NCBI GenBank assembly: GCA_963759005.1
Contig: CAVWXQ010000014.1
Span: 23,655-87,654 of the forward strand
Length of the DNA: 64,000 nt
Direction of reading: 5' to 3'
Origin: an uncultured Gammaproteobacteria bacterium
Lineage (GTDB): Bacteria; Pseudomonadota; Gammaproteobacteria; SZUA-229
This document shows, in pieces, positions 21,831-60,371 of the stretch. The position numbers were made by a program, and so were the translations under genes. Below the pieces are notes generated by a model. It saw only the letters and a list, made by a program, of their open reading frames with translations. It was not told where the DNA came from and did not search any database. The first letter of the stretch is position 1. Each line of letters begins with the position of its first letter.

Positions 21831-21902
21831 CTACACACTAACCATTACCAACACCTTGTTATTCTGTGGATTGAATAACTACATTGAGGAATCTCTAATT
21901 AA

Positions 21903-22318
21903 CCCGGATATTTCATAGTAATGCAGAATTTTGGGGAAATATCAGTGAGTCAGTTTGTACGATTCACCGATAAAATCGTAGGAACGATTTTACATGAGCG
22001 AAGCGAGCCCGTAGGGTTAATGGGCAGGAGGCCCGTAATTAAAGCATAGCCGTTCGGCACACCGCTTCGCTGCTCCATGCATTGCCCTACTACCGTACTT
22101 CCTATACATAAGCTATGGTTACAGGGGAATCGTACAAAATGGCCGCTGATATTTTTCCAAAAACTGCATATACTGCCATGGATGGCAGGTAGTAGGGCAA
22201 TGCAGGAGCTATTGCCGAGCATTGTCAGGTACATAGTGTACTTCTCTAATATACTGCTATTTCTTATAATAATCATAGCGTTAAGCAAGATTAGCAGCGT
22301 TCCTATGAAATATCCGGG
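21903..22318 (-). mobile_element. MITE copy 2 with about 170 bp of nested insertions
   Basis: Same TIRs in inverse orientation. Contains extra internal segments that are inverted repeats of each other (gcattgccctactacc / ggtagtagggcaatgc). The terminal ...GGGTT overlaps the TAA stop of the ada-like gene. Confidence 0.7.
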
Positions 22319-23173
22319 TTAAGTTGACAATCCAGTTCTCGCCGCCTCCCATAGATGAATTGCGTGCTTTCGAGTCTCGCCCCAATGATAGCCACCAAGA
22401 TTTCCGCTTTGTTGAATAACACGATGACAGGGTATAAGAAACCCAATCGGGTTTGAACCGATAGCCCTGCCAACAGCACGGGCTGAATTTGGACGTCCAA
22501 TTGAAGCAGCCACCTGAGAATAACTCACTACTTTGCCCATTGGAATATCAAGCAAAGCCCGCCAGACACTTACCTGAAAATTTGTACCAGAGACCAGTAA
22601 AGATAATGGGCGGTCTTTATCATTTTCTATAGCGAACATTGAATCGATAATTTCAGCTGTATGTTTGCTGTTGTTTATTAACTGCGCATAAGGCCAGCGC
22701 TTCACAAGATCTTTAATTTCCTGTTCAGCATTGCTCTCTTCAGGAAATGAAAATTTACAGATCCCTCGTGGCGTAATAGCAATAAACGCGCTGCCAAATA
22801 CCGTTTCATGAACCGCATACTCAATAGTCAGGCCACTGCCCTGCGTTTTAAATTCACCTGGCGTAACTGCCTCGAGACTAACAAAGTGGTCGTAAAGTCT
22901 CGAGCCGCTACTCAACCCGACTTCATGCGTTACCTCTAATATGGGTTTAGCCTCTTGCAGCAATTTTTTTGCGCGTTCTACGGTAAGAACCTGTAAGAAT
23001 CTTTTTGGGGTAACGCCTGCCCAACGCGTGAACATCCGCTGAAAATGATAAGAACTTAAATGAACATGCGCTGCTATTTCATCCAGGGTTGGCTGTTGCC
23101 CAACCTGATTAGTTACATAATGGATAGCTTTCGCGATTCGTTCATAATCCGACATATTTCTTATGTCCCGCAA
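22319..23173 (-). CDS. Ada-like bifunctional AraC-type regulator / methylated-DNA-protein-cysteine methyltransferase
   Basis: AraC HTH in the N-terminus. MGMT active site IPCHRVI in the C-terminus. Confidence 0.8.
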   Translation of the reverse strand: MRDIRNMSDYERIAKAIHYVTNQVGQQPTLDEIAAHVHLSSYHFQRMFTRWAGVTPKRFLQVLTVERAKKLLQEAKPILEVTHEVGLSSGSRLYDHFVSLEAVTPGEFKTQGSGLTIEYAVHETVFGSAFIAITPRGICKFSFPEESNAEQEIKDLVKRWPYAQLINNSKHTAEIIDSMFAIENDKDRPLSLLVSGTNFQVSVWRALLDIPMGKVVSYSQVAASIGRPNSARAVGRAIGSNPIGFLIPCHRVIQQSGNLGGYHWGETRKHAIHLWEAARTGLST

Positions 23174-23716: not shown

Positions 23717-24022
23717 TTATAACTCACCCGACTCGTCCACTTCAGTAATCCAGTACATCCCCTTACCTGTAAACGATATACCCGAACCACGAAGCTCATC
23801 CAGTAAAGTTTTCGCGCGGGCATCTTCCAGAATCACATCAACACGCACCTGAGGCACATAACCCACCACTTTATCCCGAGCCGATAAAAAAGCATCCTGC
23901 TTTAATTGCGAGCTATGCTCTTCGATATGACTGAACATAAAACTGTCCAGCTGCAGGCTACGCAAACAGTCAGCCAGTTCCTGTTGCAGTGATGTATGCA
24001 CCACGATGGATAATTTTTTCAT
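23717..24022 (-). CDS. DUF3240-like P-II-fold protein, typical 3' partner of HME-RND pumps
   Basis: About 100 aa. Position overlaps the RND stop by 4 nt. I recall this family as a small P-II-like protein downstream of czc/cus pumps. Confidence 0.5.
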   Translation of the reverse strand: MKKLSIVVHTSLQQELADCLRSLQLDSFMFSHIEEHSSQLKQDAFLSARDKVVGYVPQVRVDVILEDARAKTLLDELRGSGISFTGKGMYWITEVDESGEL

Positions 24023-27000
24023 GCTGAGACCTCCACTTTTTTCACCCGCATCTTTTTCTCTAATGCTTCTTCTACCCAGGCATAGAGTGCCGGCAGTAAA
24101 ATCAATGTCAGGATGGTTGAGGTAAACAGGCCGCCAATCACCACGACGGCGAGTGGCTGCTGCAGTTCAGAGCCGGGGCCGGTCGCTGTCAGCAGGGGCA
24201 ATAAACCAAAGCTGGCTATCATGGCTGTCATCAGTACCGGTCTTAATCGTCGTTCAGCGCCCCGTCTTACCGCTTGCTGAATACTTAAACCCCTTTGCCT
24301 TAGTTGATTGAAGTAACTCACCATCACCACACCATTGAGTACCGCAACACCAAACAGGGTAATAAAACCTACCGATGCCGGTACCGACAGATAAAGTCCG
24401 GAATAATACAAACTGACGACACCGCCAATCATAGCGAAAGGGATGTTCAGAATAATCACGCCTGCCTGTAACAGCGAACGGAAAGTGGTAAACAACATGA
24501 AGAAAATAAGCACTATGGCAACAGGTACCACCAGAGCCAGTCTGGTTGATGCACGCTGCTGGTTTTCGAACTGACCACCAAAGGTAACATAATAACCCGT
24601 AGGCAAGTCCACTTTTTCTTCTATCTTACGACGTACTTCCTCGACAAAACTGACCACATCGCGGGCCTCTACATTTGACTGGATAACCACCAGACGTTTG
24701 GCCGATTCACGTATAATCTGAACCGGTCCATCCACCACTGTCACTTCGGCCAGGTGTCCCAGAGACACTTTAGTACCATTGGGTAAACTCACCAGCATTT
24801 TTTTAATGGCTGCCGCTGAGCTGCGATCTTTTTCCTGATAGCGCACCAGGATGCCGACACGACGATTATTTTCCAGTAATTCGGTCACCACCTGGCCACC
24901 GACTGCGGTTTCTACTAACCTGTTAATGTCTTCAACATGGATGCCATAACCGGAAATCACGTCCTGATTGATGTCGATCTGTAAATATTTCTGCCCTGAA
25001 ATATCAGCACGAAACACGTCTACTGCACCCGTTATATTATTCACCAGTTGTTCAATTTCGATGGCTTTCTGCTCCAGTACAAACAGATCATCACCATAAA
25101 GTTTGATTGCCATGGCAGAACGCACACCGGTTAGCATTTCTGATACGCGCATATCGATTGGCTGACTGAAGGCGTAATCAACATTATCAAAAGGGGCTAA
25201 TTTTTCACGCAAATTTTCCTGGAACTGTTGCAATGAAATATTCCATTCTTCCTGTGGTTTTGTCACCAGAAAATTATCGGTCTGATTTAAGCCCATTGGA
25301 TCCATGCGTAATTCATCAGCGCCTGTTCGCGAGGTGACGCCAATCACTTCAGGCAGCTCCATCATGGCTTTTTGAATCGGTGCGTCCATTTCCAGCGATT
25401 TTTCCAGGGTGATACTGGGATCTTTTTCTAACAGGATAACGGTACTGCCCTCATCCATGATCGGCATAAATTCTTTACCGATATGAGGGAACAGGGTTGC
25501 TGTTGCAAACAGCGCCACCAGCGCTAACCCTACCGCCGTTTTTCTATAACGTAGCGCCCAGTTCATCGCCGGTAAATAAATGATTTTCAGCACTCGCATA
25601 AGACGACCATCTGTGTCTGCATTTTGGGCCTCGGCCAGCGCATTTTCGGCCTGCTTTTCATCGTCCTGTTTTTTCGCCTGTTCATTCGGTTGATTTTGGA
25701 CATGAAGTTTCATAAAGAAACTGGCCAGCACTGGAATCACGGTTAATGACATTATTAACGAACCAATCAGGGCAAAAGTAATGGTAATGGCCAGCGGCGA
25801 AAACATTTTCCCTTCCAGTCCGGTCAGGCTAAACAATGGCAGAAACACAGCCACAATAATCAGTATGCCGGAAATAACCGGCGACGATACTTCCAGCACC
25901 GCGCGATAAACAAGGTGCAATTTATTAACACCTGCAGGCGCTTTACTGAAATGGCTATGAATGTTCTCCACCACCACGACGGCGGCATCAACCAGAATGC
26001 CAATAGCGATTGCCAGCCCGCCTAGTGACATCAGGTTGGCAGATACATTGAACAGCTTCATCATAATGAAGGTAAACAACACGGTTAACGGCAAAATTAA
26101 TGCCACCGTTAACGCACTGCGGATATCACCCAGCATAATAATTAACACCAGCAATACCAGCACAACGGCTTCACCCAGTGCTTTTTCCACCGTCCATACT
26201 GCCTTGGTAATCAGCTCGGTTCGATCATAAAACGATTCGATGCTAACGCCTTCAGGCAAAATAGCTTTTAATGTTTCCAGTGCTTTTTTAGTTTCTGCTA
26301 CCGTCTGTAAACTGTTGGCGCCTTTACGCAACAGAACCAGTCCGGTGACGACTTCACCCTCGCCATCAGCAGTTACCGCGCCATAACGTGTCATACTGCC
26401 AACGCGCACCTCGGCTACATCACTAATATGTATCGGTTCACCATAAAGTGTGCGTACGGTTATGTTCTTAATGTCGTCCACGTTGTTTAATTTTCCGACC
26501 GTACGCACCAGTAATACTTCATCGTTCTGGTTGATGCGATCACCGCCAGCATTGCGGTTACTCTCCATCAGAGCATGCTCTATTTCGTCGATACTGATGC
26601 CGTGTTTAACCAGCGTTTTCGGTTTGATAACTACTTCATAGGTACGAACTTCACCGCCCAGTGAATTAACATCTGCCACCCCTTCTACTTTGCGCAGATG
26701 CGGACGGATGACCCAGTCCTGCAAACTGCGCAATTCCTGGTTGCTATAACTCTTGCCGCTATCATCGCCGCTGTTGGTGTCGTAGTTATGGCCGATAATG
26801 CGATACATAAATATCTCACCCAGTGGGGTGGTAATGGGAGCCAGACCACCTTCAATATCGGCCGGTAATGAATCCCAAACCTGGTTGAGTCGCTCTGTCA
26901 CCAGATTACGCGCCAGATAAATATCCATGTCATCTTCAAAGTCGACAACAATCACACTTAATGCATATTTTGTTGTTGATCTAAGTACGGTCTGTCCGGG

Positions 27001-27228
27001 AATGCCCTGCATTTCCATTTCAATCGGAAAGGTAATGCGCTGCTCAACTTCACTGGGTGACATACCGGGGGCCTTGATAATAATCTGCACCTGGGGCGCT
27101 GAAATATCCGGAAAAGCATCAATCGGTAAGGTTTTAAACGACCATAAACCGGCAGCAGAAATGCCCAGTGTGACTAACACAACCATCAGTCTCTGGATAA
27201 GAGAAAAACGTAAAATTGCAGCAATCAT
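24019..27228 (-). CDS. heavy-metal efflux RND permease (CzcA/CusA family)
   Basis: About 1070 aa with 12-TM RND architecture. N-terminus MIAAILRFSLIQRLMVV...DAFPDISAPQV is typical of HME-RND. Likely start is the ATG at 27226-27228, 1 nt after the OMF stop, with RBS ggagg. Confidence 0.9.
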   Translation of the reverse strand: MIAAILRFSLIQRLMVVLVTLGISAAGLWSFKTLPIDAFPDISAPQVQIIIKAPGMSPSEVEQRITFPIEMEMQGIPGQTVLRSTTKYALSVIVVDFEDDMDIYLARNLVTERLNQVWDSLPADIEGGLAPITTPLGEIFMYRIIGHNYDTNSGDDSGKSYSNQELRSLQDWVIRPHLRKVEGVADVNSLGGEVRTYEVVIKPKTLVKHGISIDEIEHALMESNRNAGGDRINQNDEVLLVRTVGKLNNVDDIKNITVRTLYGEPIHISDVAEVRVGSMTRYGAVTADGEGEVVTGLVLLRKGANSLQTVAETKKALETLKAILPEGVSIESFYDRTELITKAVWTVEKALGEAVVLVLLVLIIMLGDIRSALTVALILPLTVLFTFIMMKLFNVSANLMSLGGLAIAIGILVDAAVVVVENIHSHFSKAPAGVNKLHLVYRAVLEVSSPVISGILIIVAVFLPLFSLTGLEGKMFSPLAITITFALIGSLIMSLTVIPVLASFFMKLHVQNQPNEQAKKQDDEKQAENALAEAQNADTDGRLMRVLKIIYLPAMNWALRYRKTAVGLALVALFATATLFPHIGKEFMPIMDEGSTVILLEKDPSITLEKSLEMDAPIQKAMMELPEVIGVTSRTGADELRMDPMGLNQTDNFLVTKPQEEWNISLQQFQENLREKLAPFDNVDYAFSQPIDMRVSEMLTGVRSAMAIKLYGDDLFVLEQKAIEIEQLVNNITGAVDVFRADISGQKYLQIDINQDVISGYGIHVEDINRLVETAVGGQVVTELLENNRRVGILVRYQEKDRSSAAAIKKMLVSLPNGTKVSLGHLAEVTVVDGPVQIIRESAKRLVVIQSNVEARDVVSFVEEVRRKIEEKVDLPTGYYVTFGGQFENQQRASTRLALVVPVAIVLIFFMLFTTFRSLLQAGVIILNIPFAMIGGVVSLYYSGLYLSVPASVGFITLFGVAVLNGVVMVSYFNQLRQRGLSIQQAVRRGAERRLRPVLMTAMIASFGLLPLLTATGPGSELQQPLAVVVIGGLFTSTILTLILLPALYAWVEEALEKKMRVKKVEVSA

Positions 27229-27229
27229 T

Positions 27230-28573
27230 TTACACTCCTCCTTCGAGCAGGCTGACATTCAGTGTATCGGCATCCGATATCATTTGCCCGGCAAACAGCT
27301 TGACCTCCGCTAACTCCACCCATGCCTGATAGAGTAATTCCATATAAGTTAAGCGTGCTTCAAAATAGGTATTATTTGCATCTACCAGAGACAATATATT
27401 TAATTCGCCACTGCTAAATCCCTTGTTGGTTAAGTCGAGCATCTTCTTCGCTGGCTTAAGCACTTTTTGTTTATAGTCCCTGGCCTGTTCAACTACATGG
27501 TTCAAATGCGTAAAGCTTTTATTCAGATTAATTTTCAACTCACGTCGCAATAACTGTAACTCGATACGTTGCTGACTGGCTTTATAGGTGGCTTTGCTTG
27601 CTGCGGTGTTTTTACGGTCATTGATTGGAATTTGAACATTGAACATGATGGCGTAAACATCACCGCGTCCACTGAGAAAGGTATCTTTTGACCAGCTCAA
27701 AGCGATAGTCGGGTCGACCATCTGGCTACTGCGAGCAACATCTATTTCATGCTTCGCCGCCAGAACCTGCTGCTGCTGGCTGGAGAGCTGTGCATGATTA
27801 TCCTGTAATGAAATCAGATTATTAATATCGGGAATTTCTTCGATAGGCTGCAGCTCAGAAACTGTTGCCACACTGCCAATCTCCAGACCTAATAATTTGA
27901 CAAACTCATTCACCACTTCATTGTATTTACCTTCAGCGCTGCTTGCTGCCTGACGCGCTTCTTCCTGAATAATGGTCAGTCGCATTTTTTCCAGTGGTGT
28001 TAAATAACGCACAACAATGCCCGCTGAATTTTTCTTTGATTGACCACCCCACTCATTAGCCAGCTGAAGCTGTTTTTCAGCCAGCTTTAATTCTGACGAA
28101 ACAAGCTGTAACTGGTGATATATTTTCGTCACACGATTTTGCACCTGCAGCGTCTGATACTGGCGGGAAAACCGGGCCGCTTTCAGACTGGCCTCAGCAG
28201 CTGATGTCTGGTATTTGATACGTGAGATTGGGATGGGCTGGCTAATCGTAATATCAGTCAGATCATACCCGCCGGTTTCATCATCCTGCCCCAATTTATT
28301 ATCGATGCGAGCGCCTATGCTAGGTTCTGGCCATAAACTGGACAGGTTTATGTCCTCCTTGCGCGCACCAATTTCAGCCATCGCCTGTTTTAATTCTGGT
28401 GAGACAGACATTGCCTGCTCAACGCTAGATTGCAAGGTCCATTGCTGTGCAATGGACGGTGTACTCAGCAGCAGCATTATTATCAGTGCCAATAGCACTA
28501 TTAGTACAGCGGTGATTTTTGAAAATACGGCTTTTGTCGACTTAATGGTGGTAAGAACGGGGGTAATAAACAT
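27230..28573 (-). CDS. outer-membrane efflux factor (TolC/CzcC/CusC family)
   Basis: 447 aa with a signal/TM N-terminus. Coiled-coil-rich two-repeat OMF pattern. C-terminal ...LNILSLVDANNTYFEARLTYMELLYQAWVELAEVKL. Confidence 0.8.
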   Translation of the reverse strand: MFITPVLTTIKSTKAVFSKITAVLIVLLALIIMLLLSTPSIAQQWTLQSSVEQAMSVSPELKQAMAEIGARKEDINLSSLWPEPSIGARIDNKLGQDDETGGYDLTDITISQPIPISRIKYQTSAAEASLKAARFSRQYQTLQVQNRVTKIYHQLQLVSSELKLAEKQLQLANEWGGQSKKNSAGIVVRYLTPLEKMRLTIIQEEARQAASSAEGKYNEVVNEFVKLLGLEIGSVATVSELQPIEEIPDINNLISLQDNHAQLSSQQQQVLAAKHEIDVARSSQMVDPTIALSWSKDTFLSGRGDVYAIMFNVQIPINDRKNTAASKATYKASQQRIELQLLRRELKINLNKSFTHLNHVVEQARDYKQKVLKPAKKMLDLTNKGFSSGELNILSLVDANNTYFEARLTYMELLYQAWVELAEVKLFAGQMISDADTLNVSLLEGGV

Positions 28574-28707: not shown

Positions 28708-29055
28708 TTATTGAGGTGGCGCGCGCAGGGGCGGCGTGCCACGAAAAGGAATAATCGGTAAACGTGTCTGGCTTTCTCGCAAACGACCGATGAAGGTTCG
28801 ACACTGCACGGCTGCCAGAACAGCAATCAGCAGGAATACAGCCAGCATGCTTACACTGTTTTGTTTTACTTTCAGCACACTGTCCGGACTGACGATGATT
28901 TCATGACTACTATCATCGGGCATGAGGTGACTAGCAAAAGAACTTATGTCCACAGCAAAGCCATGCTCTACAGTTGCTGCAGTTTCCTGGGTATGAATAT
29001 GTAATTCGACGGAAGTCAGAAACAGCAACGCAGTGATCACATACATGATCAGCAT
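28708..29055 (-). CDS. small two-TM membrane protein with His cluster
   Basis: TM helices at both ends. HIHTQE...H...H in the loop. First gene of the pump operon by position. Confidence 0.3.
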   Translation of the reverse strand: MLIMYVITALLFLTSVELHIHTQETAATVEHGFAVDISSFASHLMPDDSSHEIIVSPDSVLKVKQNSVSMLAVFLLIAVLAAVQCRTFIGRLRESQTRLPIIPFRGTPPLRAPPQ

Positions 29056-32697: not shown

Positions 32698-33124
32698 TAT
32701 GAGCGATTTAACTTTCCAGATGCTACTGCATTGTAATTACATAGACGACCAGAATACTATCGATCAGTTACATGTCGAACATTTAGTTAAAGACAACTGG
32801 CAGGAATTTGATATCAATACCTCCAGCCCTGGCTTCGATATTTTTATGTATGCTATTCTCACCTGTCAGCATATGTACTTTAGAAATAATGCTGCAGAAT
32901 ATGGTCTGGTTCTGGACTCAAGTGAAGGGCTATTAACAGTCATTGCTAACGAACACAGAAGCATTGAAACATTGAATGTCGAATTTAAAGGCAAACTGAA
33001 AAAAGGCGAGGCGACTGAAGACATCGTGAATTCTATTACTGCACGCATGGGCTTATGCCCGGTTTCCATCAACCTGAAGGATATATTAAACAATCATATA
33101 ACAGCGAGTTTTGAACCTGCCTGA
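32698..33124 (+). CDS. OsmC/Ohr-family protein (putative hydroperoxidase)
   Basis: ATG at 32698 (MSDLTFQ...). Paired Cys motifs AILTCQHMY and MGLCPVSINL resemble OsmC AACFSMA / AGCPVSQ. Confidence 0.5.
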
Positions 33125-33238
33125 CAGGAAATAAAAAGTCGGTTACAAAACCACTAAGTTAAGCGCAGGAAAACCAGGTCAGCAATAGTCACTGTATCTA
33201 TTTAGTGCTGCAGTCTCATGAGGGAATGCTTATACGAG

Positions 33239-33395
33239 CCCAGATATTTCATAGGAACGCTACAGCTTTAACTTAACATTATGATTGTATTGAGAAATAT
33301 TGGCATATTAGCAAAGCACACTATGTACCCGATAACGCTCGGCAATTGCTCCTGCATTGCCCTACTACCTGCCATCCATGGCAGTATATGCAGTT
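33239..33395 (+). mobile_element. MITE copy 3 (5' portion only, variant with internal insert)
   Basis: Left TIR cccagatatttcataggaacgc plus an internal segment identical to the insert in copy 2. The right end is missing. Confidence 0.5.
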
Positions 33396-33472
33396 GCTCG
33401 GGAATTATGGCTAGAACACATTACGCCCATAAATGGGCACAATGTTCACAACATATCTAGTGTAAGCCCCTA

Positions 33473-33958
33473 CTAAGATAAACTGAGTTTGATTGCATCA
33501 ACCAGATCATCACAGGCTTTGGCGCATGCATCGCACTCGATATGCTTCTCATGTTTTTTGCATTCTTTTGCACAATCCTGGCACACTTTGTCACATATTT
33601 GTGAGTACTCTTTAGTGTAACTGGAGTTCGATGCCACAAGATAGGCAAAACCACCACAAACTGACATCATTTCCTGCACCTTGCTCGCACAGTCAGCCAG
33701 TTCGGTATCACCCTCGGTAAAACTAACCATACAGTGTGCAACACAACGTCGCCCTTTGTCGAGGCAAGCATTAACTGCATCCATCACATCGGTTAACTGC
33801 GTTGCATGTTTGCTGTGATCGTGCTCTTTTGCGGCCGCCGATGCAGAACCTGCATAAGCCATGGTCGCAGCAGCACCCATCCCCAGCAATACATCTCTAC
33901 GACTGATGCCATTTTTTACCTGTTGCTGTTTTTCAGATACGGTTTCTTTTTCTGACAT
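33473..33958 (-). CDS. TAT-exported Cys-rich four-helix-bundle protein (Csp/DUF326-like copper storage)
   Basis: Twin-arginine signal SRRDVLLGMGAAATMAYAG. Many Cys in CxxxC-type spacing (CLDKGRRCVAHC, CDKVCQDCAKEC, CDACAKAC). Confidence 0.65.
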   Translation of the reverse strand: MSEKETVSEKQQQVKNGISRRDVLLGMGAAATMAYAGSASAAAKEHDHSKHATQLTDVMDAVNACLDKGRRCVAHCMVSFTEGDTELADCASKVQEMMSVCGGFAYLVASNSSYTKEYSQICDKVCQDCAKECKKHEKHIECDACAKACDDLVDAIKLSLS

Positions 33959-33993
33959 AGTTTGGGACTCCCCTGTTAAATTGTGAAGTATAT

Positions 33994-34380
33994 TTGTACT
34001 ACAGATGTGAACAACAAATCAAGATATATTATGAATATAGCAGTACCTTAATGATACATCGTGATGTTTTGGAGTTAACGAGTCAGCAGATCAGTTCCTT
34101 TCGCAATTGGCGTAAGCAAAACTATGGAAACATGGTGGACGTTATGAATACTCTTATCGAAAAGCGTGTCGAATTTAAAAAAGCTTCGCTAAATCCCGAT
34201 ACATCGGAAGAAGAATTGATTAAGACGCAAGATGATATTCTGAATTTGCACAAAAAACTTCTTGAGATAAAGTTAACCTGCCGTAAGATGTTAGTTGACA
34301 GTTTCACAGAGGCACAGTGGGATAATTTTGCATTTGCGGTTGCTGATCATCCCAAGCTTGGGAGTTTAATTCAGCGATAG
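33994..34380 (+). CDS. Spy/CpxP-family LTXXQ periplasmic protein, N-terminally truncated paralog (possible pseudogene)
   Basis: About 85% nucleotide identity to 39178-39501 from HRDVLELTSQQ onward. Lacks the signal-peptide portion present in the 38992 copy. Confidence 0.5.
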   Translation: MYYRCEQQIKIYYEYSSTLMIHRDVLELTSQQISSFRNWRKQNYGNMVDVMNTLIEKRVEFKKASLNPDTSEEELIKTQDDILNLHKKLLEIKLTCRKMLVDSFTEAQWDNFAFAVADHPKLGSLIQR

Positions 34381-34522
34381 GAAATTGCGATGGGTTTATA
34401 ATCACTTTCATACATGTGTGCCGTGCAGCATATAACCTGGTAGTTACGTAATCTCACCGGTTTGGTTGAGTCTATGTGTCAAAAATACAAACAGCACTAC
34501 CGGAATGATAATTGTTGAATGG

Positions 34523-34578
34523 CCGTTGTGGGTCGACTTTGCCCTGTCAGCTCATTACCCCGAAGGAGAATATGCGGC
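34523..34578 (+). repeat. 56-bp dispersed repeat, copy A
   Basis: ccgttgtgggtcgRctttgccctgtcagctcattaccccgaaggagaatatgcggc. Identical to 37971-38026 except for 1 nt. Confidence 0.6.
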
Positions 34579-34831: not shown

Positions 34832-35065
34832 TCACAGCCCGATAAGTTGGGCATGCGCTCCCTGGTCCGTTATGCGTTTCAGAATTTTCTGAGAATCCAT
34901 TTCCTCAGGATTGTATTGTACAACGGTCAGATGTGGTGTTTTGCTCGAACCATGTACGCTGACAACCCCGTCCAGGGCACGAAGACTGTCCTCTACCGTT
35001 ATTCTCTGTTCAGGGCTCAGGTTTTCATCGATATGCACAGTAAGATCAACAAGATTGATATCCAT
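34832..35065 (-). CDS. small hypothetical protein (HMA-like fold guess, no CxxC)
   Basis: 77-aa ORF. No motif I can place. Confidence 0.25.
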   Translation of the reverse strand: MDINLVDLTVHIDENLSPEQRITVEDSLRALDGVVSVHGSSKTPHLTVVQYNPEEMDSQKILKRITDQGAHAQLIGL

Positions 35066-38122: not shown

Positions 38123-38560
38123 TTATTTATGTGGCGACAATGAGGACAGGTACTCAGAAGAACACCAACCTTTTCCGTGAAATTGTGTATTCACATAATA
38201 CCAACCATCAGCCTCTCTAATATATTCAACCTCTGATCCAACTTTCAGTACGGCGATTGGAGTGGTGTCCAATGATGCAGAAGGTCTGAGGTTTAACTTT
38301 GCTCTAACTGTATGTGTTGGAACAAATGCCTTTACTGCTTCAGATGTCATATGGGCTGATCTTGGAGCATCAGGTTCAGTTGCAGCTTGCGACTCATCTG
38401 GCTCCGCGATTTGTGGGCCGGGCGCATGGGCTGACGCATCTTCCTCTGGGGCCGTGGCTTCCTTTTCCGAGCAACCGGCACCCAGCAGCATCACTAGTGC
38501 CAGTGTGGGGGTTATCGCCTTTACGCAAAATCTCCGGCGCTGGGTAGTATCAATAGACAT
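38123..38560 (-). CDS. SH3b-domain lipoprotein
   Basis: RBS ggaggtg, then ATG at 38560. Lipobox LGAGC. C-terminus VRAKLNLRPSAS...VLKVGSEVEYI...GWYYV..GKGWCSSEYL matches the SH3_3 pattern. Confidence 0.6.
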   Translation of the reverse strand: MSIDTTQRRRFCVKAITPTLALVMLLGAGCSEKEATAPEEDASAHAPGPQIAEPDESQAATEPDAPRSAHMTSEAVKAFVPTHTVRAKLNLRPSASLDTTPIAVLKVGSEVEYIREADGWYYVNTQFHGKGWCSSEYLSSLSPHK

Positions 38561-38730
38561 GGGTTCACCTCCGTAATGACGTGATTGGGTAATCTGTTGT
38601 TGTGAAGTGTACGTGAAAATCACTTGGGTGTAAAAAAAAGTCGGGTCCTGTCCTTCCCTCGAATCACAGCGGGTTGCAGGCTAAACACGTACTTTCGGCT
38701 GCCAGTTCAACCGTATGAAAGGTTTAGTAT

Positions 38731-38991: not shown

Positions 38992-39501
38992 ATGAATATA
39001 AATGCTATAAAACTCGCCACTATTCTCATAACAACCTTTTTGTTTGTCGAGCCACTCTCGGCAATGCATAAAAGTGACCATGATCTATCCAATGATGAAT
39101 GGGCGATACTAATGCGCAAACTTGAGCTACTGGATGGTGTTAACTACATGCCAACATTATTACCTACAATAATGAGACATCGTGACGTATTGCAGTTAAC
39201 GAGCCAGCAGATCAACTCCTTTCGCAATTGGCGTAAGCAAAACTATGAAAACATGGTAAAAGTAATGAATACAATTATCGAAAAGCGTATCGATTTCAAA
39301 AAAGCTTCGTTAAACCCCAAGACTTCAGAGGAAAAATTACGTGAGATGCAAAGCGATATTCTGACCTTGCATAAACAGCTTCTTGAGATAAAGTTATCCT
39401 GTCGTAAAATGCTCGTTGATAGTTTTACAGAGGAGCAGTGGGATAACTTTGCCTTTGCGGTTGCTGATCACCCCACGCTAGCGAGTTTAGTTCAACAATA
39501 G
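38992..39501 (+). CDS. Spy/CpxP-family LTXXQ periplasmic protein (full length, signal peptide)
   Basis: Signal peptide MNINAIKLATILITTFLFVEPLSA. LTSQQ motif. Paralog of 33994-34380. Confidence 0.6.
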   Translation: MNINAIKLATILITTFLFVEPLSAMHKSDHDLSNDEWAILMRKLELLDGVNYMPTLLPTIMRHRDVLQLTSQQINSFRNWRKQNYENMVKVMNTIIEKRIDFKKASLNPKTSEEKLREMQSDILTLHKQLLEIKLSCRKMLVDSFTEEQWDNFAFAVADHPTLASLVQQ

Positions 39502-40633: not shown

Positions 40634-42097
40634 TTACCAACTCAATGCCACGAATTGCTGCATATTGTTTTTTCTGATGAGTAACAGTATACGTTTGCTG
40701 GCGCTGCTTTTTTTCACTTCACGTTTAAAGTCCTCAGCACTTGTTATCGGTATACGGTTTACCTGTACGATAATGGAACCGGATTGTATGCCTGCACTGG
40801 CAGCAATGGAATCAGGTCTGACTTGCGTAACCACCACCCCTTCACCGGCTTTTGCGTTAAATTGTTCAGCCAGTTGTGGCGTAATGGTCTGCACGGTCAG
40901 GCCTAGCTCATCGGTGCTTTGAGTTGATGCCTCTGCAACCATTTTGTCCTTGCTTAGTGTACCGATAGTGACAGAAATATTGCGGCGCTTACTATCGCGG
41001 ATAATCGTCAATTGTTCGCGGCTTCCCGGTGATGTAAGCGAGACCCGGTTACGGAATTCACCTACTTTGGTCACTGGTTTACCCTGGTAGGCAACAATGA
41101 CATCACCCTGTTTCAAACCCGCCTCTGCGGCCGGTGAATCTTCGGTTACCTGGGCGATCAAAATCCCCTGGTTTTGATCAAGATCGAACGACCTGGCCAG
41201 TTCAGGTGTTAACTCCTGAATGACGATACCAAGATAACCTCGTGTCACCTCGCCACTATCCATCAACTGATCAGCAATGCCTTTGGCCAGGTCAATGGGG
41301 ATGGCGAAACCGACACCCATATAACCGCCGCTGCGAGAAAGGATCGCGGTATTGATGCCGACAACTTCACCATCAAGATTAACCAGAGGCCCACCGGAGT
41401 TACCAGGATTGATGGCCGCATCTGTCTGGATGAAATCCTCATAATCACTAATCCCTAAACTGGTGCGTCCTTTAGCGCTGACCACGCCTACAGTAAGGCT
41501 ATGGCTTAATCCAAAAGGGCTACCAATGGCAATGACCCATTCCCCGACCTCCAATGAAGAAGAATTGCCCAGCGCCAGTGCCGGCAGCCCTCCTGTCTTG
41601 ATCACTAGTACGGCAACGTCGGATTGCGGGTCTGTACCGACGATCTCGGCATCAAATTCACGGCCATCCTTGAGTTGCACATGGATCTTGTCTGCTCCAG
41701 CCACAACATGGTTATTTGTCAGGATATAGCTTTTATCGGAGAACAGACCATCCTTTGACTTGAAGATAAACCCCGAACCCTGACCGACAGCACGGCGCTT
41801 GCTCTCTGGCGTCTCAGATCGAGGCATTTGCGGGAGCTGAAATTGATCGCCAAAAAAGCGTTTAAACAGGTCATCATTGAATGGTCCACCTTCACCGAAA
41901 GGGAACTGAAAATCGGGCATTTCTTGCCCGCTCACTATGCCCTCACTGCGAATATAAACGACAGAAGGCGATACAGTGCGAGCCACTGAGGTGAAAGCCT
42001 TGCCAGTCTCACGCAAACTTTCAATGCCACTTTCCTGTGCATGGACTGGTGTTATGAATAGAAACACACTCAGGATTAAAATTATTTTATTATTCAT
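40634..42097 (-). CDS. degP: DegP/DegQ (HtrA) periplasmic serine endoprotease with two PDZ domains
   Basis: Catalytic triad contexts TNNHVV, D, GNSGGPL. Signal peptide. Confidence 0.9.
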   Translation of the reverse strand: MNNKIILILSVFLFITPVHAQESGIESLRETGKAFTSVARTVSPSVVYIRSEGIVSGQEMPDFQFPFGEGGPFNDDLFKRFFGDQFQLPQMPRSETPESKRRAVGQGSGFIFKSKDGLFSDKSYILTNNHVVAGADKIHVQLKDGREFDAEIVGTDPQSDVAVLVIKTGGLPALALGNSSSLEVGEWVIAIGSPFGLSHSLTVGVVSAKGRTSLGISDYEDFIQTDAAINPGNSGGPLVNLDGEVVGINTAILSRSGGYMGVGFAIPIDLAKGIADQLMDSGEVTRGYLGIVIQELTPELARSFDLDQNQGILIAQVTEDSPAAEAGLKQGDVIVAYQGKPVTKVGEFRNRVSLTSPGSREQLTIIRDSKRRNISVTIGTLSKDKMVAEASTQSTDELGLTVQTITPQLAEQFNAKAGEGVVVTQVRPDSIAASAGIQSGSIIVQVNRIPITSAEDFKREVKKSSASKRILLLIRKNNMQQFVALSW

Positions 42098-42334: not shown

Positions 42335-42832
42335 TTACTCAACTTTTATTTGTTTACGTTGAGATTTTTCCTGTTTTGGTATGGTCATTTCCAGCACACC
42401 ATTCTTGTAGGATGTTTTGATTTTTTCATCATCAACCTCGTCAGGTAAGAAAACAGAACGATAGATCTCGCTCTGTCTGATTTCCTGTTTCAGGTAGTCA
42501 CCTTTTTCCTCTTTTTCTTCCTTGCAGGTTTTTGCTTTGATAACGAGTCGGTTATTAGCTATCGAAATATCGAGATCATCTTTATCAAAACCGGGTAATT
42601 CAGCTTTAACAAAAATTTCTTTATCTCTATCGACAACATCTATCTTTGGCATTTTGCTTAGAGAACTAAAAGAAAACGTGTCAGGTAATTTCTCATGATG
42701 GAAAGGATTGCGCCACATGTTATGAAACATGTTTTCAACTCTGTCCTCAAGGTCCCTGAACGCTGTTAAATAGCTATTCTCAGCCTCATTTGTGGTTTTT
42801 GAAAGATTTTTTTTGTCAGACATTTTAATCAC
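42335..42832 (-). CDS. Hsp20/alpha-crystallin family small heat-shock protein
   Basis: ...IFVKAELPGFDKDDLDISIANNRLVIKAK...YKNGVLEMTIPK. Confidence 0.85.
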   Translation of the reverse strand: MIKMSDKKNLSKTTNEAENSYLTAFRDLEDRVENMFHNMWRNPFHHEKLPDTFSFSSLSKMPKIDVVDRDKEIFVKAELPGFDKDDLDISIANNRLVIKAKTCKEEKEEKGDYLKQEIRQSEIYRSVFLPDEVDDEKIKTSYKNGVLEMTIPKQEKSQRKQIKVE

Positions 42833-55467: not shown

Positions 55468-56904
55468 TTAAAGGAAAGCACCTGTATTATCGATAGCGTT
55501 TAGTTGCAAACCATCTGGACCAGTTTCACCTGTATCAGGTATCCATGGTGCAAGACATTGACGGTCTTTAACACAAGGATCGGTTAACGATTTTAAGAAC
55601 TCAACCAGATCGATCACATCATCATCGGTATAGGTAACATTTTGATGAACCCCTGCAACATTGTTAGCACGATTAGCTTCAAGCTGGTCCAGCGCAAACT
55701 GAGTATTTGTTTGCATATTTGAAAACTGTATATTTGCATTTGAATCTAATTGTGAATAATCGTAATTAGCAATAGCCTGTGCCGGATTCAACATGTGACG
55801 AACCATGTTCTCCAATGTGGTGTAAGCACCGGCATGTCCCCATGGGCCGGTAACTTCCACATTAAGTAATGTCGGTGTTCTGAAACGGTACATATCAGCC
55901 GCAACTTTACTTTCTCTGAAACGACCAAAATCATCATTGATCAATGTGCCATTATCATCACCTTTACCACGACCAATCTGGGGCGATGCCAGTACATGAT
56001 ATTGTTCATCGGTAAAGAAATCACCAGCGTGGCATGAGCTACAGTTCGCACCACCATCTTCAACTTTGCCAAAAAACATCATCGCACCACGTTTCGCAGA
56101 TTCACTAATCGCTGTAGCATTACCTTCTACATATGCTTTCCACGGAGAGTTTACAAAAACCTGTGAACGCTCATATTCGCCGATTGCTTCTGCAATGAGT
56201 GTATAAGTGATGGTAGTGGGTACACCAAAGGCAGTCTCGAATTCGGCAAGCCAATCAATATCTCCGGCCAATTTCAAAGCCAGTGCATCACGAATTTTAT
56301 CGTTAGTATTTTGAGCTGGCAGACTAAAACCATGCATTTCTTCAGGTGAGGTTACCGGAAATCGGGATTGCGCTGCCGCAAGCGTATCAGTTGCCGCATT
56401 CGGATCGGCAACATCAAAGGCTGAATCCGGTGTACGAATACCTATCCCATCATCACCATTTGCGCCCTCTGTTTTACCCAGGCTTTCCACCCTGCCATCA
56501 TGAAACAGCGCCTGATCCCACATTGCAATGTTAAACGTAGTCGGTGCATTTCTTGGCACGGTTGGACCACCATCAAATTCACCACCCACCGCATTAATAT
56601 CATGGAAACGTCCTGGACCTAGCAGGTCAGGATTTTCCGCACCAACACCAATCGATAATGATAATCCATCACCACCGCCTAATGATGGATGATGACAGGT
56701 CACGCATGCAGAGTCATCATCGCCACCCAGACCTTTAGTGAAAAACAGTTTCTTACCCAGCTGTGCTTTTGCGTCTGTAATAGCAGGAAGAACTCTGCCT
56801 GTGGCTGGATCGCCGGTTAATCCATATTCCGTTACCATCTGTAACAACTCAGCATTACTAACAGTAGCCTCAGGATTACTATTATCACATGCCGCCAGTA
56901 ACAA
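55468..56904 (-). CDS. MbnH/MauG-like di-heme cytochrome c peroxidase family enzyme (paralog 1), probable N-terminal frameshift
   Basis: CVTCHHP and CSSCHAG heme sites. FRTPTLLNVEVTGPWGHAG. Tail LKSLTDPCVKDRQC. The signal peptide MDRRHLLTLSIRIKL lies in another frame, followed by LLLAAC in this frame. Confidence 0.75.
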   Translation of the reverse strand: MLLAACDNSNPEATVSNAELLQMVTEYGLTGDPATGRVLPAITDAKAQLGKKLFFTKGLGGDDDSACVTCHHPSLGGGDGLSLSIGVGAENPDLLGPGRFHDINAVGGEFDGGPTVPRNAPTTFNIAMWDQALFHDGRVESLGKTEGANGDDGIGIRTPDSAFDVADPNAATDTLAAAQSRFPVTSPEEMHGFSLPAQNTNDKIRDALALKLAGDIDWLAEFETAFGVPTTITYTLIAEAIGEYERSQVFVNSPWKAYVEGNATAISESAKRGAMMFFGKVEDGGANCSSCHAGDFFTDEQYHVLASPQIGRGKGDDNGTLINDDFGRFRESKVAADMYRFRTPTLLNVEVTGPWGHAGAYTTLENMVRHMLNPAQAIANYDYSQLDSNANIQFSNMQTNTQFALDQLEANRANNVAGVHQNVTYTDDDVIDLVEFLKSLTDPCVKDRQCLAPWIPDTGETGPDGLQLNAIDNTGAFL

Positions 56905-58181: not shown

Positions 58182-59070
58182 AAGTTATTCCTATGCTAAA
58201 AATGGTACCTTCTGTATGCTCACCATACAGTGCATCGATAGCAGGAAATTTAACTGTGGCATTCAGTAATAAATCCTGCACCATGGTGTAAATGAATCCT
58301 GGCGCAATAAAAATAATGGTGCCACCTGAATCCGGGTCATCCAGGCCGGAAAATGTGTCCCGCTTACTGCTTCTGCCTTCCAGACCTAAATAATATGCCA
58401 CACTGTGTTGCGAAGCATATTGCGCAGTTGCATTATATACCAGAGCATCTCCTGCCTGAAACTCCTGGTAACCTTCTGTTGCGACATGATAGGTCGCGCT
58501 GGTATAAAACAGATACGGATAATTATAATTGGCATACCAGGCACCTGCATTTAAAACTGTTGCGCCCTGGCCGGCCTGCACATCAAAATCCAGCGGAACA
58601 CCATTACTGTCAGTTTCTTCAGATGCAGTAGGTAATTTTAAACCGCCCAGAAAACCATACATATGTGTTTGCAAAAACTCTTTTTCCTGCATAAAGTTTT
58701 TAACTGTAATGGTGACATCACCCAGTGCCGTGACTTCTTCCTGAGTTAAATTAAATGATTCCAGCTGACGGTTAACATACGGAACATTCACCCCCAACAT
58801 TAATCGCGTGCTCGGTGCATAGGCCAGGTTTAATGAGACCCTGTTTTCATCAATGACTTTTTTATTAAAACCTTCACGCCCCAGTTCTTCACTGCGTGAC
58901 AAATAGTTTAATGACAGTCGCAGACGATTTTCATACGGTTTTTCTGCACCCATCAATGTCTGCGTGGGGTCACCAACCATACAGGTAGAGCAGGCCATTG
59001 CCACAGGTGCAGCTAAAAAACAGCATAAAAACAGAAGCGAATTTCTTACCATATTACAACCTAGGGACAC
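58162..59070 (-). CDS. outer-membrane beta-barrel protein (possibly transporter / MetA-pathway-like family)
   Basis: Signal peptide ...AAPVAMA. Beta-strand-rich. Overlaps neighbours by 10-20 nt, which suggests coupling. Confidence 0.35.
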   Translation of the reverse strand: MSLGCNMVRNSLLFLCCFLAAPVAMACSTCMVGDPTQTLMGAEKPYENRLRLSLNYLSRSEELGREGFNKKVIDENRVSLNLAYAPSTRLMLGVNVPYVNRQLESFNLTQEEVTALGDVTITVKNFMQEKEFLQTHMYGFLGGLKLPTASEETDSNGVPLDFDVQAGQGATVLNAGAWYANYNYPYLFYTSATYHVATEGYQEFQAGDALVYNATAQYASQHSVAYYLGLEGRSSKRDTFSGLDDPDSGGTIIFIAPGFIYTMVQDLLLNATVKFPAIDALYGEHTEGTIFSIGITYDFQVH

Positions 59071-60371
59071 ATTGCATGTTTCTGGATATTGCCGAAGGGA
59101 TCAGAGAGTTCATCCCGACAAACGAAGTCCCAGTCCGTCAAACTCTTGAAGAACTCGATGAGGTCAAGACGTTCATCAGCCGTGATGACGAAACCATTAA
59201 TAAAACCGCTCGTATTATTTGGACTCAGAGCACCATCACCCGCATTAGGATCAGGCGGTAAAATCAATCGTCCTCCCCGCGCATAGTGATCAATAACTTC
59301 ATCTAATGTTGCGATACTGCCATCGTGCATATAGGGCGCTGTCAGCTCGATATTTCTTAACGTCGGCGCACGGAACTTTCCTTCATCTTCAGGCAACAGG
59401 GTAAATTCCCTCAGGCCATGATTATTTTCTGGGTATAACCCATCTCCGATATCATCACCATTGCCATCAATATTATATAAAGCATTATTATGGAAATTGT
59501 TATGAGTGAATGTAGAACCCTCATGATCTACCGAATCACTGAAGTTGAATCCACCATGACAGTGAAAACATTCCAGTCTTTCACTAAAGAATAATTCCTT
59601 GCCTCGCTTCGCAGCATCAGACATGGTATTTGCTTCACCACGATTATCCTTATCGAATTCTGAGTCTCCGGAAATCATAATACTGCCAAACGCTGCAAAT
59701 GCCTTGACCACCGTCGACAGGGTTATCGGTTCGATTTCATCCGGGAAAGCATCAGCAAACATCTGCGGGTAGTCTGGTGCATTACCCACAAACATTGTGC
59801 CGGCGTAGTCAGCGTTTGAGGGAGACTTCAACCTGCCGAGGATCTCATCAACATGCCCTGCCCAGCCAAGTTCTATCGGATCTTCATTCAATACCACTGC
59901 CAGCGCCTGGTCATGCAGGTTCGCGATCTGGGGATTCGCCCAGTTCATCGTGCTGTTGTAAACCACATTGGTCATACTCATCGCGTTGCGCGCATGCACA
60001 TCAGCCTGCGAACCTACCGATACCGTCAGACCATCGGTGAATGCCTTTTCCTGTAGATGGCAGTCAGCACAAGATTGCGTCTGGTTGAATGACATATTGC
60101 GATCATAAAACAGCAGGTGACCCAGCTCGACCTTCTCCATGCTTAACGGGTTTTCTTCCGATTCTCTCGGTAGCGGAAAACCGCAGGGTAGCTCCACTGG
60201 CGCTCCGGAGCCACATTCACCATACAGCGCACTGGAAACAACTGGTGATTCCAGACCAGGTACCGGTGTTTCTGTATCAGACCCAGAGCAACTCGCCAGC
60301 AAGAAGCTGGCGATGATGCTTACAGGTAATATGGTTAAAGCTTTAGACGTTACAACTTGCATAATAATCAC
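59061..60371 (-). CDS. MbnH-like di-heme cytochrome c peroxidase family enzyme (paralog 2)
   Basis: CADCHLQ and CFHCHGG. FRAPTLRNIELTAPYMHDGS. Tail FKSLTDWDFVCRDE. Lipobox LASC. Confidence 0.8.
   Translation of the reverse strand: MIIMQVVTSKALTILPVSIIASFLLASCSGSDTETPVPGLESPVVSSALYGECGSGAPVELPCGFPLPRESEENPLSMEKVELGHLLFYDRNMSFNQTQSCADCHLQEKAFTDGLTVSVGSQADVHARNAMSMTNVVYNSTMNWANPQIANLHDQALAVVLNEDPIELGWAGHVDEILGRLKSPSNADYAGTMFVGNAPDYPQMFADAFPDEIEPITLSTVVKAFAAFGSIMISGDSEFDKDNRGEANTMSDAAKRGKELFFSERLECFHCHGGFNFSDSVDHEGSTFTHNNFHNNALYNIDGNGDDIGDGLYPENNHGLREFTLLPEDEGKFRAPTLRNIELTAPYMHDGSIATLDEVIDHYARGGRLILPPDPNAGDGALSPNNTSGFINGFVITADERLDLIEFFKSLTDWDFVCRDELSDPFGNIQKHAMCP

Follow-up and report, generated by a model that had tools for sequence, protein, structure and literature searches.

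A predicted Tat-exported Csp1-family copper storage protein in a putatively rearranged neighbourhood of an uncultured sediment gammaproteobacterium

Three small genes lying side by side in an uncultured gammaproteobacterium raise the question of whether they act together under copper stress or are independent of each other. The window, by which we mean the whole 64-kb stretch of DNA that was analysed, had been described in a first-pass annotation as carrying an OsmC-like gene, a Csp-like copper storage gene and an LTXXQ chaperone-like gene in one cluster. We computed family assignments, gene truncation, synteny and repeats, and found the three open reading frames at the positions given for them:

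32699..33124, plus strand, convergent with csp: gene for a predicted divergent OsmC/Ohr-fold protein of 141 aa without a signal peptide, assigned by fold comparison
33473..33958, minus strand: csp, Csp1-family copper storage protein gene, assigned by the TIGR04401 score, the MtCsp1 alignment and invariant residues
34051..34380 (open reading frame from 33994/34051), plus strand: copy A, a 5'-truncated gene for a predicted periplasmic LTXXQ-type helical protein, assigned by homology to copy B and full-length orthologues

The TIGR04401 model ('Csp1 family four helix bundle copper storage protein') matched the 161-aa csp product with 110.4 bits (cutoff 100), and residues 19-156 of the product covered positions 2-148 of the 151-position profile. 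In a phmmer search of the PDB the best solved relative was MtCsp1 (5fjd, E 6.8e-13), the other top relatives being named 'four-helix bundle copper-binding proteins'; 11 of the 12 Cys of the csp product fell on Cys of MtCsp1, and His75 fell on the His of CLRHC. The Cys had been counted as at least 13 in CxxxC spacing, a figure that we correct to 12, arranged as four CxxxC and two CxxC pairs. At the N-terminus, the Tat motif SRRDVLL leads into a mildly hydrophobic stretch with cleavage at ASA/AA (ISRRDVLLGMG...ASA/AAKE), and the Pfam TAT_signal model gave 14.8 bits, under its threshold of 22.7. SRR was invariant in 20/20 homologues, together with all 12 Cys, His75 and the sequence HDHSKH at the mature N-terminus. 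Because the TIGR04401 score lies above its cutoff, MtCsp1 aligns, and SRR and the Cys are invariant in the homologues, the proposal of a Tat-exported Csp1-type store is supported, and csp is predicted to encode a true Csp1-family four-helix-bundle copper store.

This assignment was based on TIGR04401 and the PDB alignment, and not on the DUF326 Pfam model. PF03860.21, a 21-residue repeat model, gave 7.9 bits (E 4.3) for the csp product and weak matches in 14 of the 20 homologues, and precomputed PF03860.22 matches are on record for homologues up to 96% identical. A total of 344 homologues were matched, the best 120 of which were all at least 74% identical, and some are named Tat-targeted Cys-rich four-helix bundle proteins by their sources; an exact-sequence look-up found no sequence on record identical to the Csp of the window. 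The gene has a strong Shine-Dalgarno sequence, GGGGAG, 9-10 nt 5' of its ATG. The exported product would most likely form a four-helix bundle in the periplasm, where the 12 inward-facing Cys and His75, perhaps with HDHSKH, may bind about a dozen Cu(I). It would then serve as a periplasmic copper buffer, either supplying cuproenzymes or holding copper for efflux.

MtCsp1 and MtCsp2 from Methylosinus trichosporium OB3b (PDB 5FJD and 5FJE) and the gonococcal Csp NGO1701 all carry a Tat signal peptide, as the csp product does. The mature domain of the latter aligns end to end with MtCsp1 over ~120 aa, with 11 equivalent Cys and the His of C-x-x-H-C, whereas MtCsp1 has 13 Cys in comparison with 12 here; the csp product has an extra Cys122 and lacks an equivalent of the MtCsp1 Cys at position 113. 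Unlike the three known proteins, it has the invariant HDHSKH and two extra His in the loop between helices 3 and 4, and N-terminal His have also been noted in NGO1701 (PMC12510493). The cytosolic Csp3 proteins (e.g., PDB 5FIG) share with it the superfamily of Cys-lined four-helix bundles but have no signal peptide, and the match to them is far weaker (E 8e-4 compared to about 1e-13 for Csp1). According to the literature, exported Csp1 is rare in organisms other than methanotrophs (PMC12510493). In contrast to the hosts of the MtCsp proteins, the host here is a gammaproteobacterium from sediment that has not been cultured, and the window gives no sign of methane oxidation; unlike the genes for MtCsp1, MtCsp2 and NGO1701, csp in the relatives precedes a heavy-metal RND efflux unit.

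Upstream of csp, we found one conserved element:

33994..34023, minus strand: promoter/operator-like block CTTGATT-N12-CTGTAGTACAA, recognised by conservation 5' of csp

The block is kept in 16 of the 17 aligned csp upstream regions, the flanks of which diverge, and it has a single match in the 64-kb window, where 0.04 would be expected by chance. A consensus promoter and terminator scan of 32.3-34.7 kb stayed at chance level, and Rfam searches at permissive E-values gave no match in 28-42 kb. We infer that this block may be a promoter-like or operator-like element belonging to csp itself.

The first-pass annotation had also connected csp with an RND pump and MbnPH genes as a dispersed copper-handling theme, and these genes are indeed present in the window:

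28708..29055, minus strand: small115, small membrane protein gene (115 aa), directly 3' of csp in relatives by tblastn/blastp synteny (L004, L006, L009, L010, L028)
27230..28573, minus strand: outer-membrane efflux factor of the OEP/TolC family (Pfam OEP), syntenic with csp in L004, L006 and L009
24019..27258, minus strand: CusA/CzcA-family heavy-metal efflux RND permease (TIGR00914, 1053 bits, cutoff 701)
23717..24022, minus strand: gene for a small DUF3240/P-II-like protein that closes the RND unit (Pfam DUF3240, E 3.7e-11), syntenic in L006
29383..32375: cytochrome block separating csp from the RND unit, with a b561 gene, split here into two open reading frames, and a gene for a 716-aa c-type cytochrome with five haems (Pfam)
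60413..61336: MbnP gene
59061..60371: MbnH-like gene

The small115 protein had no family match in Pfam. The 716-aa haem protein was considered as a candidate MbnH and rejected: it is a multihaem cytochrome with five CxxCH motifs, and the genes for MbnP and the MbnH-like protein lie at 59-61 kb. Synteny analysis showed that in the related loci L004, L006, L009 and L010 csp is located directly upstream of genes for a small115 homologue and the outer-membrane factor; L004 and L006 also show the CusA/CzcA gene, the L009 contig ends inside the outer-membrane factor, and in L010 no permease gene was identified. Adjacency of csp and the RND unit was found in only 4 of the 16 csp loci examined. The cytochrome block is absent from L004, L006 and L009 and present in L017, with an intact b561 and two multihaem genes. 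Both the window and L017 have an extra cytochrome/OsmC block between csp and the RND unit, which in the window comprises ~4.4 kb of cytochrome genes and the OsmC-like gene. Because csp heads the small115 and outer-membrane factor genes in the four loci, the theme is more aptly called an interrupted csp-RND unit than a dispersed one, and the gene order suggests that this RND unit is a more conserved and older genomic partner of csp than its OsmC-like and LTXXQ-type neighbours.

A more far-reaching proposal can be made for the clade of uncultured sediment Gammaproteobacteria, namely that the gene for the exported Csp1 heads a conserved unit encoding the small membrane protein, the outer-membrane factor, the CusA/CzcA permease and the DUF3240 protein but no membrane-fusion protein, that Csp1 works as a periplasmic Cu(I) buffer feeding or relieving the pump, and that CTTGATT-N12-CTGTAGTACAA is its dedicated conserved operator. 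We put this forward as a tentative and rather doubtful proposal, in which a coupling of Csp to the pump is presumptive.

The OsmC-like assignment holds at the fold level; the Pfam OsmC model (PF02566) gave 19.8 bits (E 0.001), below its threshold of 27.5. Precomputed PF02566 matches exist in a few homologues only, NCBIfam gave no match for the OsmC-like or the LTXXQ-type proteins, and a profile of the OsmC-like family found no match among PDB sequences. The AlphaFold model had a pLDDT of 95.6 and a pTM of 0.89, and in a Foldseek search of the PDB with this model 11 of the top 12 entries were OsmC/Ohr-family or OsmC-like redox proteins, the remaining one, 1ml8, being without a family name; E values ranged from 1.7e-5 to 6e-4 and TM from 0.44 to 0.65. 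The predicted fold thus matches that of the OsmC/Ohr thiol peroxidases (PF02566; PDB 1NYE, 1LQL and 1N2F), and two Cys are invariant, the second of which belongs to a C-P motif; in contrast, identity to the solved members is 7-16%, the score stays below Pfam gathering, and the protein belongs to a 141-aa family of its own, most members of which are labelled 'hypothetical'. Cys56, located in the long helix 45-67, and Cys120, located in LCPVS, are invariant in 27 sequences, and their position, rather than a superposition, suggests that they may be the peroxidatic/resolving Cys pair of OsmC/Ohr. They lie close in position to Cys59 and Cys125 of E. coli OsmC. The structural model supports an OsmC-like fold, and the product would be a cytoplasmic two-cysteine protein, probably a thiol-dependent hydroperoxide reductase.

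The third gene has an intact paralogue in the window, with protein quality control genes beside it:

38992..39501, plus strand: copy B, intact LTXXQ-type paralogue, 169 aa with a signal peptide and the conserved motifs LTxxQ and FTEEQ
40634..42097, minus strand: DegP/DegQ-type periplasmic protease with a trypsin domain and 2 PDZ domains (Pfam), adjoining copy B
42335..42832: Hsp20 gene (Pfam), after the DegP/DegQ-type protease

The DNA of copy A is 83% identical to 39165-39464 of copy B. Its open frame starts at an internal ATG, which corresponds to residue 61, and runs for 109 codons to the native stop, so that ~59 codons are missing, and it has neither a signal peptide nor the invariant N-terminal residues of the family. 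No Shine-Dalgarno sequence precedes 34051, and copy B has GAGGAAGGG. The full-length A-type orthologues P0380 and P0373 have 168-169 aa with a signal peptide, and an N-terminal hydrophobic leader is found in copy B and the orthologues. Only 6-8 nt separate copy A from P0380 and P0373, with 5 non-synonymous differences, and dN/dS against these intact orthologues is uninformative, the differences being too few to show relaxed selection. Both copies contain LTSQQ and FTE(A/E)Q, 76 residues apart, in which L/T/Q and F/T/Q are (nearly) invariant across the family. Like CpxP, Spy and ZraP (PF07813; ZraP PDB 3LAY), they therefore have two LTXXQ motifs, but PF07813 matched neither copy. Weak PF07813 matches were found in 7 of the 27 family members (best E 2e-4), and the family profile returned only noise among PDB sequences, with no CpxP, Spy or ZraP. 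The motifs are thus suggestive only of the CpxP/Spy/ZraP family, and the chaperone-like gene of the first-pass annotation does have the two [LF]TxxQ motifs, on a 5'-truncated copy that has no signal peptide. Copy A is probably a pseudogene, the 3' two-thirds of a gene for a putative periplasmic helical-hairpin protein, and a functional exported product has most likely been lost; the working copy would be copy B beside DegP/Q and Hsp20. A 166-aa open reading frame divergent from copy B (38123..38623) was considered as a second Csp and rejected as an SH3-domain lipoprotein-like protein.

The surrounding DNA contains several traces of rearrangement:

34049..34050: junction between the csp upstream region and codon ~60 of the LTXXQ-type gene, placed by homology end-points
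33191..33411: insertion of 221 bp compared to 44 bp in L017 (blastn of the window and L017)
33237-33408: MITE fragment with the left terminal inverted repeat only, inside the 221-bp insertion and 65 bp 3' of the csp stop
21900..22321, minus strand: longest complete MITE copy, with terminal inverted repeats AACCCGGATATTTCATAG
14021-14266 and 40020-40278: further complete MITE copies

The csp side of the junction is homologous to L017, L002 and L023, and the homology to L017 and L002 stops at 34050; on the other side, homology to copy B and the full-length orthologues begins at 34049. The sister contig L023 has both sides, separated by ~580 bp that are missing in the window, and a full-length LTXXQ-type gene divergent from the csp upstream region. 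A deletion of ~580 bp relative to L023 would have fused copy A to the csp upstream region, with CTTGATT-N12-CTGTAGTACAA retained just inside the junction. The MITE copies were found by a repeat-family search and alignment of four copies. The three complete ones are short (245-420 bp), non-coding and multi-copy, with termini AACCCGGATATTTCATAG / CTATGAAATATCCGGGTT; part of the element is present in L017 as well, and inspection of the flanks revealed no clear target-site duplication. The MITE fragment 3' of csp had been noted correctly, and the location 'between MITE copies' is true only loosely, the nearest complete copies (21900-22321 and 40020-40278) being 11 kb and 6 kb away. Split genes were also found for cytochrome b561 (29383-30130), an SSF symporter (46528-48260) and a PEP-CTERM-like protein (36156-36869), and the GC content jumps from ~0.65 to ~0.43 at a MITE copy. 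Because of the MITE fragment, the deletion and the several other broken genes, we marked the neighbourhood as a rearrangement-prone stretch, in which csp appears to be an ordinary gene and an added member of the known Csp1 family.

Since other split genes and the GC jump are present, some lesions of the window could be assembly or sequencing errors. Taken further, the truncation of copy A and the other gene breaks would be assembly or long-read artefacts, and the real genome would carry a full-length LTXXQ-type gene divergent beside csp as in L023, a view to which L020 and L023, two alternative structures of the same region from one sample, lend some weight. However, a clean ~580 bp deletion that ends exactly at an in-frame ATG is untypical of indel errors, copies A and B at 83% identity are too divergent for a simple repeat collapse, and both flanks are otherwise collinear at 86-97% identity, which makes an artefact unlikely.

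In another alternative, the three genes would form one copper, oxidative and envelope stress cluster that is mobilised or delimited by MITEs. All three families are plausibly related to copper stress (copper-driven peroxide stress, copper buffering and envelope protein damage), the OsmC-like gene adjoins csp in four related contigs (L002, L017 and L030 are named among the closest relatives), and the divergent full-length gene of L023 would fit as well. Nevertheless, the genes lie convergent and divergent and therefore form no operon, the LTXXQ copy here has neither signal peptide nor Shine-Dalgarno sequence, an LTXXQ-type gene adjoins csp in none of the 16 loci from other genomes, and the three genes are not enclosed as a unit by MITE copies. 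The OsmC-like gene is not beside csp in the more distant L018, L019 and L028, and its homologues at 70-77% identity have unrelated gene contexts, so it is seen as a lineage-specific neighbour in the closest relatives only; because L028 has it near the same RND unit without Csp, some regional association is possible. As one member gene is apparently a remnant and another a lineage-specific neighbour, the stress cluster is very unlikely and is not carried forward. That copy A is a functional short cytoplasmic form expressed from the intergenic region shared with csp is extremely unlikely: the frame is intact from ATG 34051 to the native stop and 109-aa products have been called in other metagenomes (P0430, P0431 and P0432), but these products are encoded at or close to the end of a contig, or 3' of a decayed in-frame N-terminal region (L021 and L022), and the missing Shine-Dalgarno sequence, signal peptide and invariant N-terminal residues as well as the non-synonymous differences speak against it.

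We consider it probable that the interval holds three independent items, the Csp1 gene, the OsmC-like gene and the truncated LTXXQ copy, rather than one functional cluster. The well-conserved clade of exported Csp1 proteins in sediment gammaproteobacterial metagenomes would modestly widen the known distribution of the family, and the connection of csp with a heavy-metal RND efflux unit in several genomes suggests a link between periplasmic copper storage and efflux. If the tentative proposal of a conserved csp-RND unit were true, Tat-exported Csp1 would be primarily a partner of RND-efflux detoxification and not a store for methane monooxygenase, and its frequency outside methanotrophs would be much higher than stated in the literature.

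The three genes at 32.7–34.4 kb of the window are arranged as follows.

32699..33124, + strand: OsmC-like ORF, 141 aa from its ATG
33473..33958, − strand: copper-storage gene csp, 161 aa
33994..34380, + strand: LTXXQ-type ORF, 109 aa if read from the ATG at 34051

The OsmC-like gene and csp are convergent, with their 3′ ends facing, and csp and the LTXXQ-type ORF are divergent, with an ATG-to-ATG spacing of 92 bp. Judged from its sequence, the Cys-rich csp product is a genuine Csp1. It scored 110.4 bits against NCBIfam TIGR04401 (Csp1 family four helix bundle copper storage protein; cutoff 100), with a match spanning residues 19–156, Tat region included. Among PDB sequences it was closest to a group of four-helix bundle copper-binding proteins that includes MtCsp1 (5fjd, E 6.8e-13), whereas the match to the cytosolic Csp3 (5fig) was much weaker (E 8e-4). 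The protein contains 12 Cys residues (65, 72, 76, 90, 101, 122, 126, 129, 133, 142, 145, and 149; four CxxxC and two CxxC pairs), and not the at least 13 counted in the first-pass annotation. When it was aligned with MtCsp1, 11 of the 12 fell on Cys residues, and His75 matched the histidine of C-L-R-H-C. The leader sequence is ...NGISRRDVLLGMGAAATMAYAGSASA/AAKEHDHSKH, with the slash at the predicted cleavage point. Across 20 homologues (74–96% identity), SRR, all 12 Cys, His75, His136, His139, and the HDHSKH of the mature N-terminus were invariant. The TIGR04401 score, the MtCsp1 alignment, and the invariant SRR thus support the earlier prediction of a TAT-exported Csp-like protein. Residues 136 and 139, in the loop between helices 3 and 4, do not align with His in MtCsp1, and these two, together with HDHSKH (residues 46–51), may be extra copper-capture sites of this clade.

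The lack of a DUF326 hit had been proposed as evidence against this identity, and PF03860.21 indeed gave only 7.9 bits (E 4.3) on the window protein. Since that model covers a 21-residue repeat only, and precomputed PF03860.22 'Csp' matches are recorded for homologues up to 96% identical, we took the weak score as a matter of model version. The search for homologues gave 344 proteins, of which the best 120 were all at least 74% identical; they came from sediment-type metagenomes and Gammaproteobacteria-labelled MAGs, including a lucinid-clam symbiont.

A GGGGAG Shine-Dalgarno sequence lies 9–10 nt 5′ of the csp ATG. Further upstream, 35–65 nt from the ATG, we found a 30-nt block (CTTGATT-N12-CTGTAGTACAA) that was kept in 16 of 17 loci while its flanks diverged, as noted across the clade (the window and the related contigs L001–L017 and L030). 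It occurs once in the window (33994–34023, − strand) and looks like a candidate promoter/operator, that is, a promoter plus regulator site, of csp itself. The block also holds a short palindrome, TGTA-G-TACA.

The first-pass annotation placed the trio in a dispersed copper-handling theme with an RND pump and MbnPH genes, and the window has these and further genes at the following positions.

23717..24022: DUF3240 protein
24019..27258: CusA/CzcA permease
27230..28573: outer-membrane factor
28708..29055: 115-aa membrane protein
55468..56904: second CCP-type gene
59061..60371: MbnH-like dihaem peroxidase, confirmed
60413..61336: MbnP, confirmed

Four related contigs (L004, L006, L009, and L010) share a same-strand run of csp, a counterpart of the 115-aa membrane protein, and the outer-membrane factor, in that order. 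The run continues with the permease in L004 and L006 and with the DUF3240 protein in L006; the L009 contig ends within the outer-membrane factor, and in L010 the run was traced as far as that gene. In the window and L017, cytochrome b561, the OsmC-like gene, and one or two multihaem cytochromes stand between csp and the RND unit. The upstream neighbours of csp differ by locus (Na/Pi cotransporter, PALP enzyme, CCP/MauG-type haem protein, and histidine kinase). The synteny downstream of csp shows its linkage to the RND unit, and the two may also be functionally coupled. The outer-membrane factor and permease genes overlap, and the unit (23717–29055) has no membrane-fusion (CusB/CzcB) gene, with the same order in L004 and L006. 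Between the unit and the trio, 30225–32375 (−) encodes a 716-aa protein with five CxxCH motifs, C-terminal repeated beta-domains, and weak MtrC/ExtKL-like matches; L017 carries two tandem paralogues there (5281–9676). On the other side, a 77-aa ORF (34832–35065, −) has weak HMA/CopZ fold similarity (E about 1e-4 to 1e-2) and zero cysteines, and in L007 a homologue with 95% identity is found 3 kb away from csp.

The OsmC-like protein scored 19.8 bits with Pfam OsmC, under the 27.5 threshold, and matched nothing in NCBIfam or, by family profile, among PDB sequences. Its relatives form a tight family annotated as 'hypothetical' and share its length of 141 aa, so the ATG at 32699 is confirmed. The AlphaFold model (27 homologues) reached pLDDT 95.6 and pTM 0.89, and among its 12 best PDB matches by Foldseek, 11 were OsmC/Ohr-family or OsmC-like redox entries, the 12th being an entry without a family name (E 1.7e-5 to 6e-4, TM about 0.44–0.65 for all 12). 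Two cysteines are invariant in the family, Cys56 (long helix) and Cys120 (within L-C-P-V-S); by position they lie close to Cys59 and Cys125 of E. coli OsmC, its peroxidatic and resolving residues. The predicted structure, the fold matches, and the invariant Cys together argue that the label 'OsmC-like' holds at the superfamily and fold level; a peroxidase function of its product is putative. The gene adjoins csp in the closest contigs only (L002, L017, and L030). A homologue with 77% identity in L028 lies near the RND unit with other genes between and Csp absent, and homologues with 70% identity in L018 and L019 lie beside pyruvate kinase.

For the LTXXQ-type ORF (copy A), we found that 34044–34343 is 83% identical to 39165–39464, which falls within an intact 169-aa gene (copy B, 38992..39501, +). 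Copy B encodes a signal peptide and is preceded by the Shine-Dalgarno sequence GAGGAAGGG. The homology starts abruptly at about 34041–34049 and extends beyond the stop codon. Full-length A-type proteins from other samples (P0373, 169 aa; P0380, 168 aa) are nearly identical to the window ORF across the 109 common residues. L023, the contig encoding P0380, has at its start the same csp upstream sequence as L017 and L002 (ATTATGAATATAGCAGTAACTTATATAG...), and then about 400 bp and the full-length A-type gene; from position 605 the contig is 97% identical to the window from 34049 onward. On the csp side, homology of the window to L017 and L002 ends at 34050. Compared with L023, which carries both sides, the window lacks about 580 bp, comprising the intergenic region and the first ~59 codons of copy A, so that the remaining ORF starts at an internal Met without a Shine-Dalgarno sequence or signal peptide. 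The junction lies ~25 nt beyond the csp upstream block. The two paralogue lineages have been under purifying selection (dN/dS about 0.15), and copy A differs from its intact orthologues at only 6–8 nt (5 non-synonymous), so that the truncation is recent. Where other metagenomes yield 109-aa calls, these are found at contig ends or follow a decayed N-terminal region, and none of the 16 csp loci from other genomes has an LTXXQ-type gene beside csp.

The main caveat on this deletion is assembly quality, since further split genes and a step in GC (13.5–14 kb) occur in the window. GC is 0.59–0.68 until about 13.5 kb and 0.39–0.47 afterwards, switching at a MITE copy (14021–14266). Two readings fit 1–14,300: a foreign island of high GC, or a chimeric join made in assembly at this repeat. 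The cytochrome b561 gene (29383–30130) falls into two ORFs that overlap (Pfam profile positions 1–109 and 80–179) through a frameshift or sequencing error, its L017 orthologue being intact (244 aa). A sodium:solute symporter (SSF) gene at 46528–48260 is broken into two ORFs (profile positions 1–252 and 289–406), and a gene for a 207-aa secreted protein with a PEP-CTERM-like C-terminus (36156–36869, −), intact in L023, is broken by an insertion of about 164 bp and stop codons.

The LTXXQ-type family conserves L-T-x-x-Q and F-T-E-E-Q, 76 residues apart, and is predicted to form a long helical hairpin. PF07813 matched 7 of 27 members weakly (best E 2e-4) and neither window copy. The neighbours of copy B, a DegP/Q-type protease and Hsp20, fit a role in the envelope or in protein quality. 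Membership in the CpxP/Spy family is suggestive; of the chaperone-like gene originally described beside csp, the motifs are present in a front-truncated remnant.

The trio had also been described as clustered between MITE copies. The MITE family has terminal inverted repeats AACCCGGATATTTCATAG, and its copies are as follows.

14021–14266: complete copy
21900–22321: complete copy, inverted
33237–33408: fragment, left end only
40020–40278: complete copy

The fragment 3′ of csp is thus real and explains a 221-bp insertion (33191–33411) where L017 has 44 bp. The trio is not enclosed as a unit by complete copies. Other short dispersed repeats, unlike the MITE, flank both LTXXQ copies (34516–34578, 35382–35444, and 37964–38026; also 35976–36107 and 38714–38848), and long ORFs are almost absent at 35.1–38.1 kb. 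Two contigs from one sample (ENA ERZ25039508), L020 (contig_77626) and L023 (contig_77625), are alternative structures of 34–40 kb. In L023, the A-type gene, orf77, and the 36.9-kb region are joined directly to the 39.67 kb sequence, bypassing an SH3 gene and copy B. These contigs indicate population-level structural variation via duplicated segments.

In the model we propose, copy A would be a non-functional remnant, and the OsmC-like gene would encode an unrelated cytoplasmic two-Cys redox enzyme. From established knowledge of the Csp family (PMC6747150, PMC12510493), csp would be transcribed independently and encode a Tat-exported protein of the MtCsp1 type that buffers and stores periplasmic Cu(I), and its ancestral linkage in this clade would be to heavy-metal RND efflux. 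Csp1 outside methanotrophs is already known from the gonococcal Csp, and exported Csps outside methanotrophs have been described as rare (PMC12510493). The csp gene adds a member to a known family, and its putative link to RND efflux is modestly interesting.
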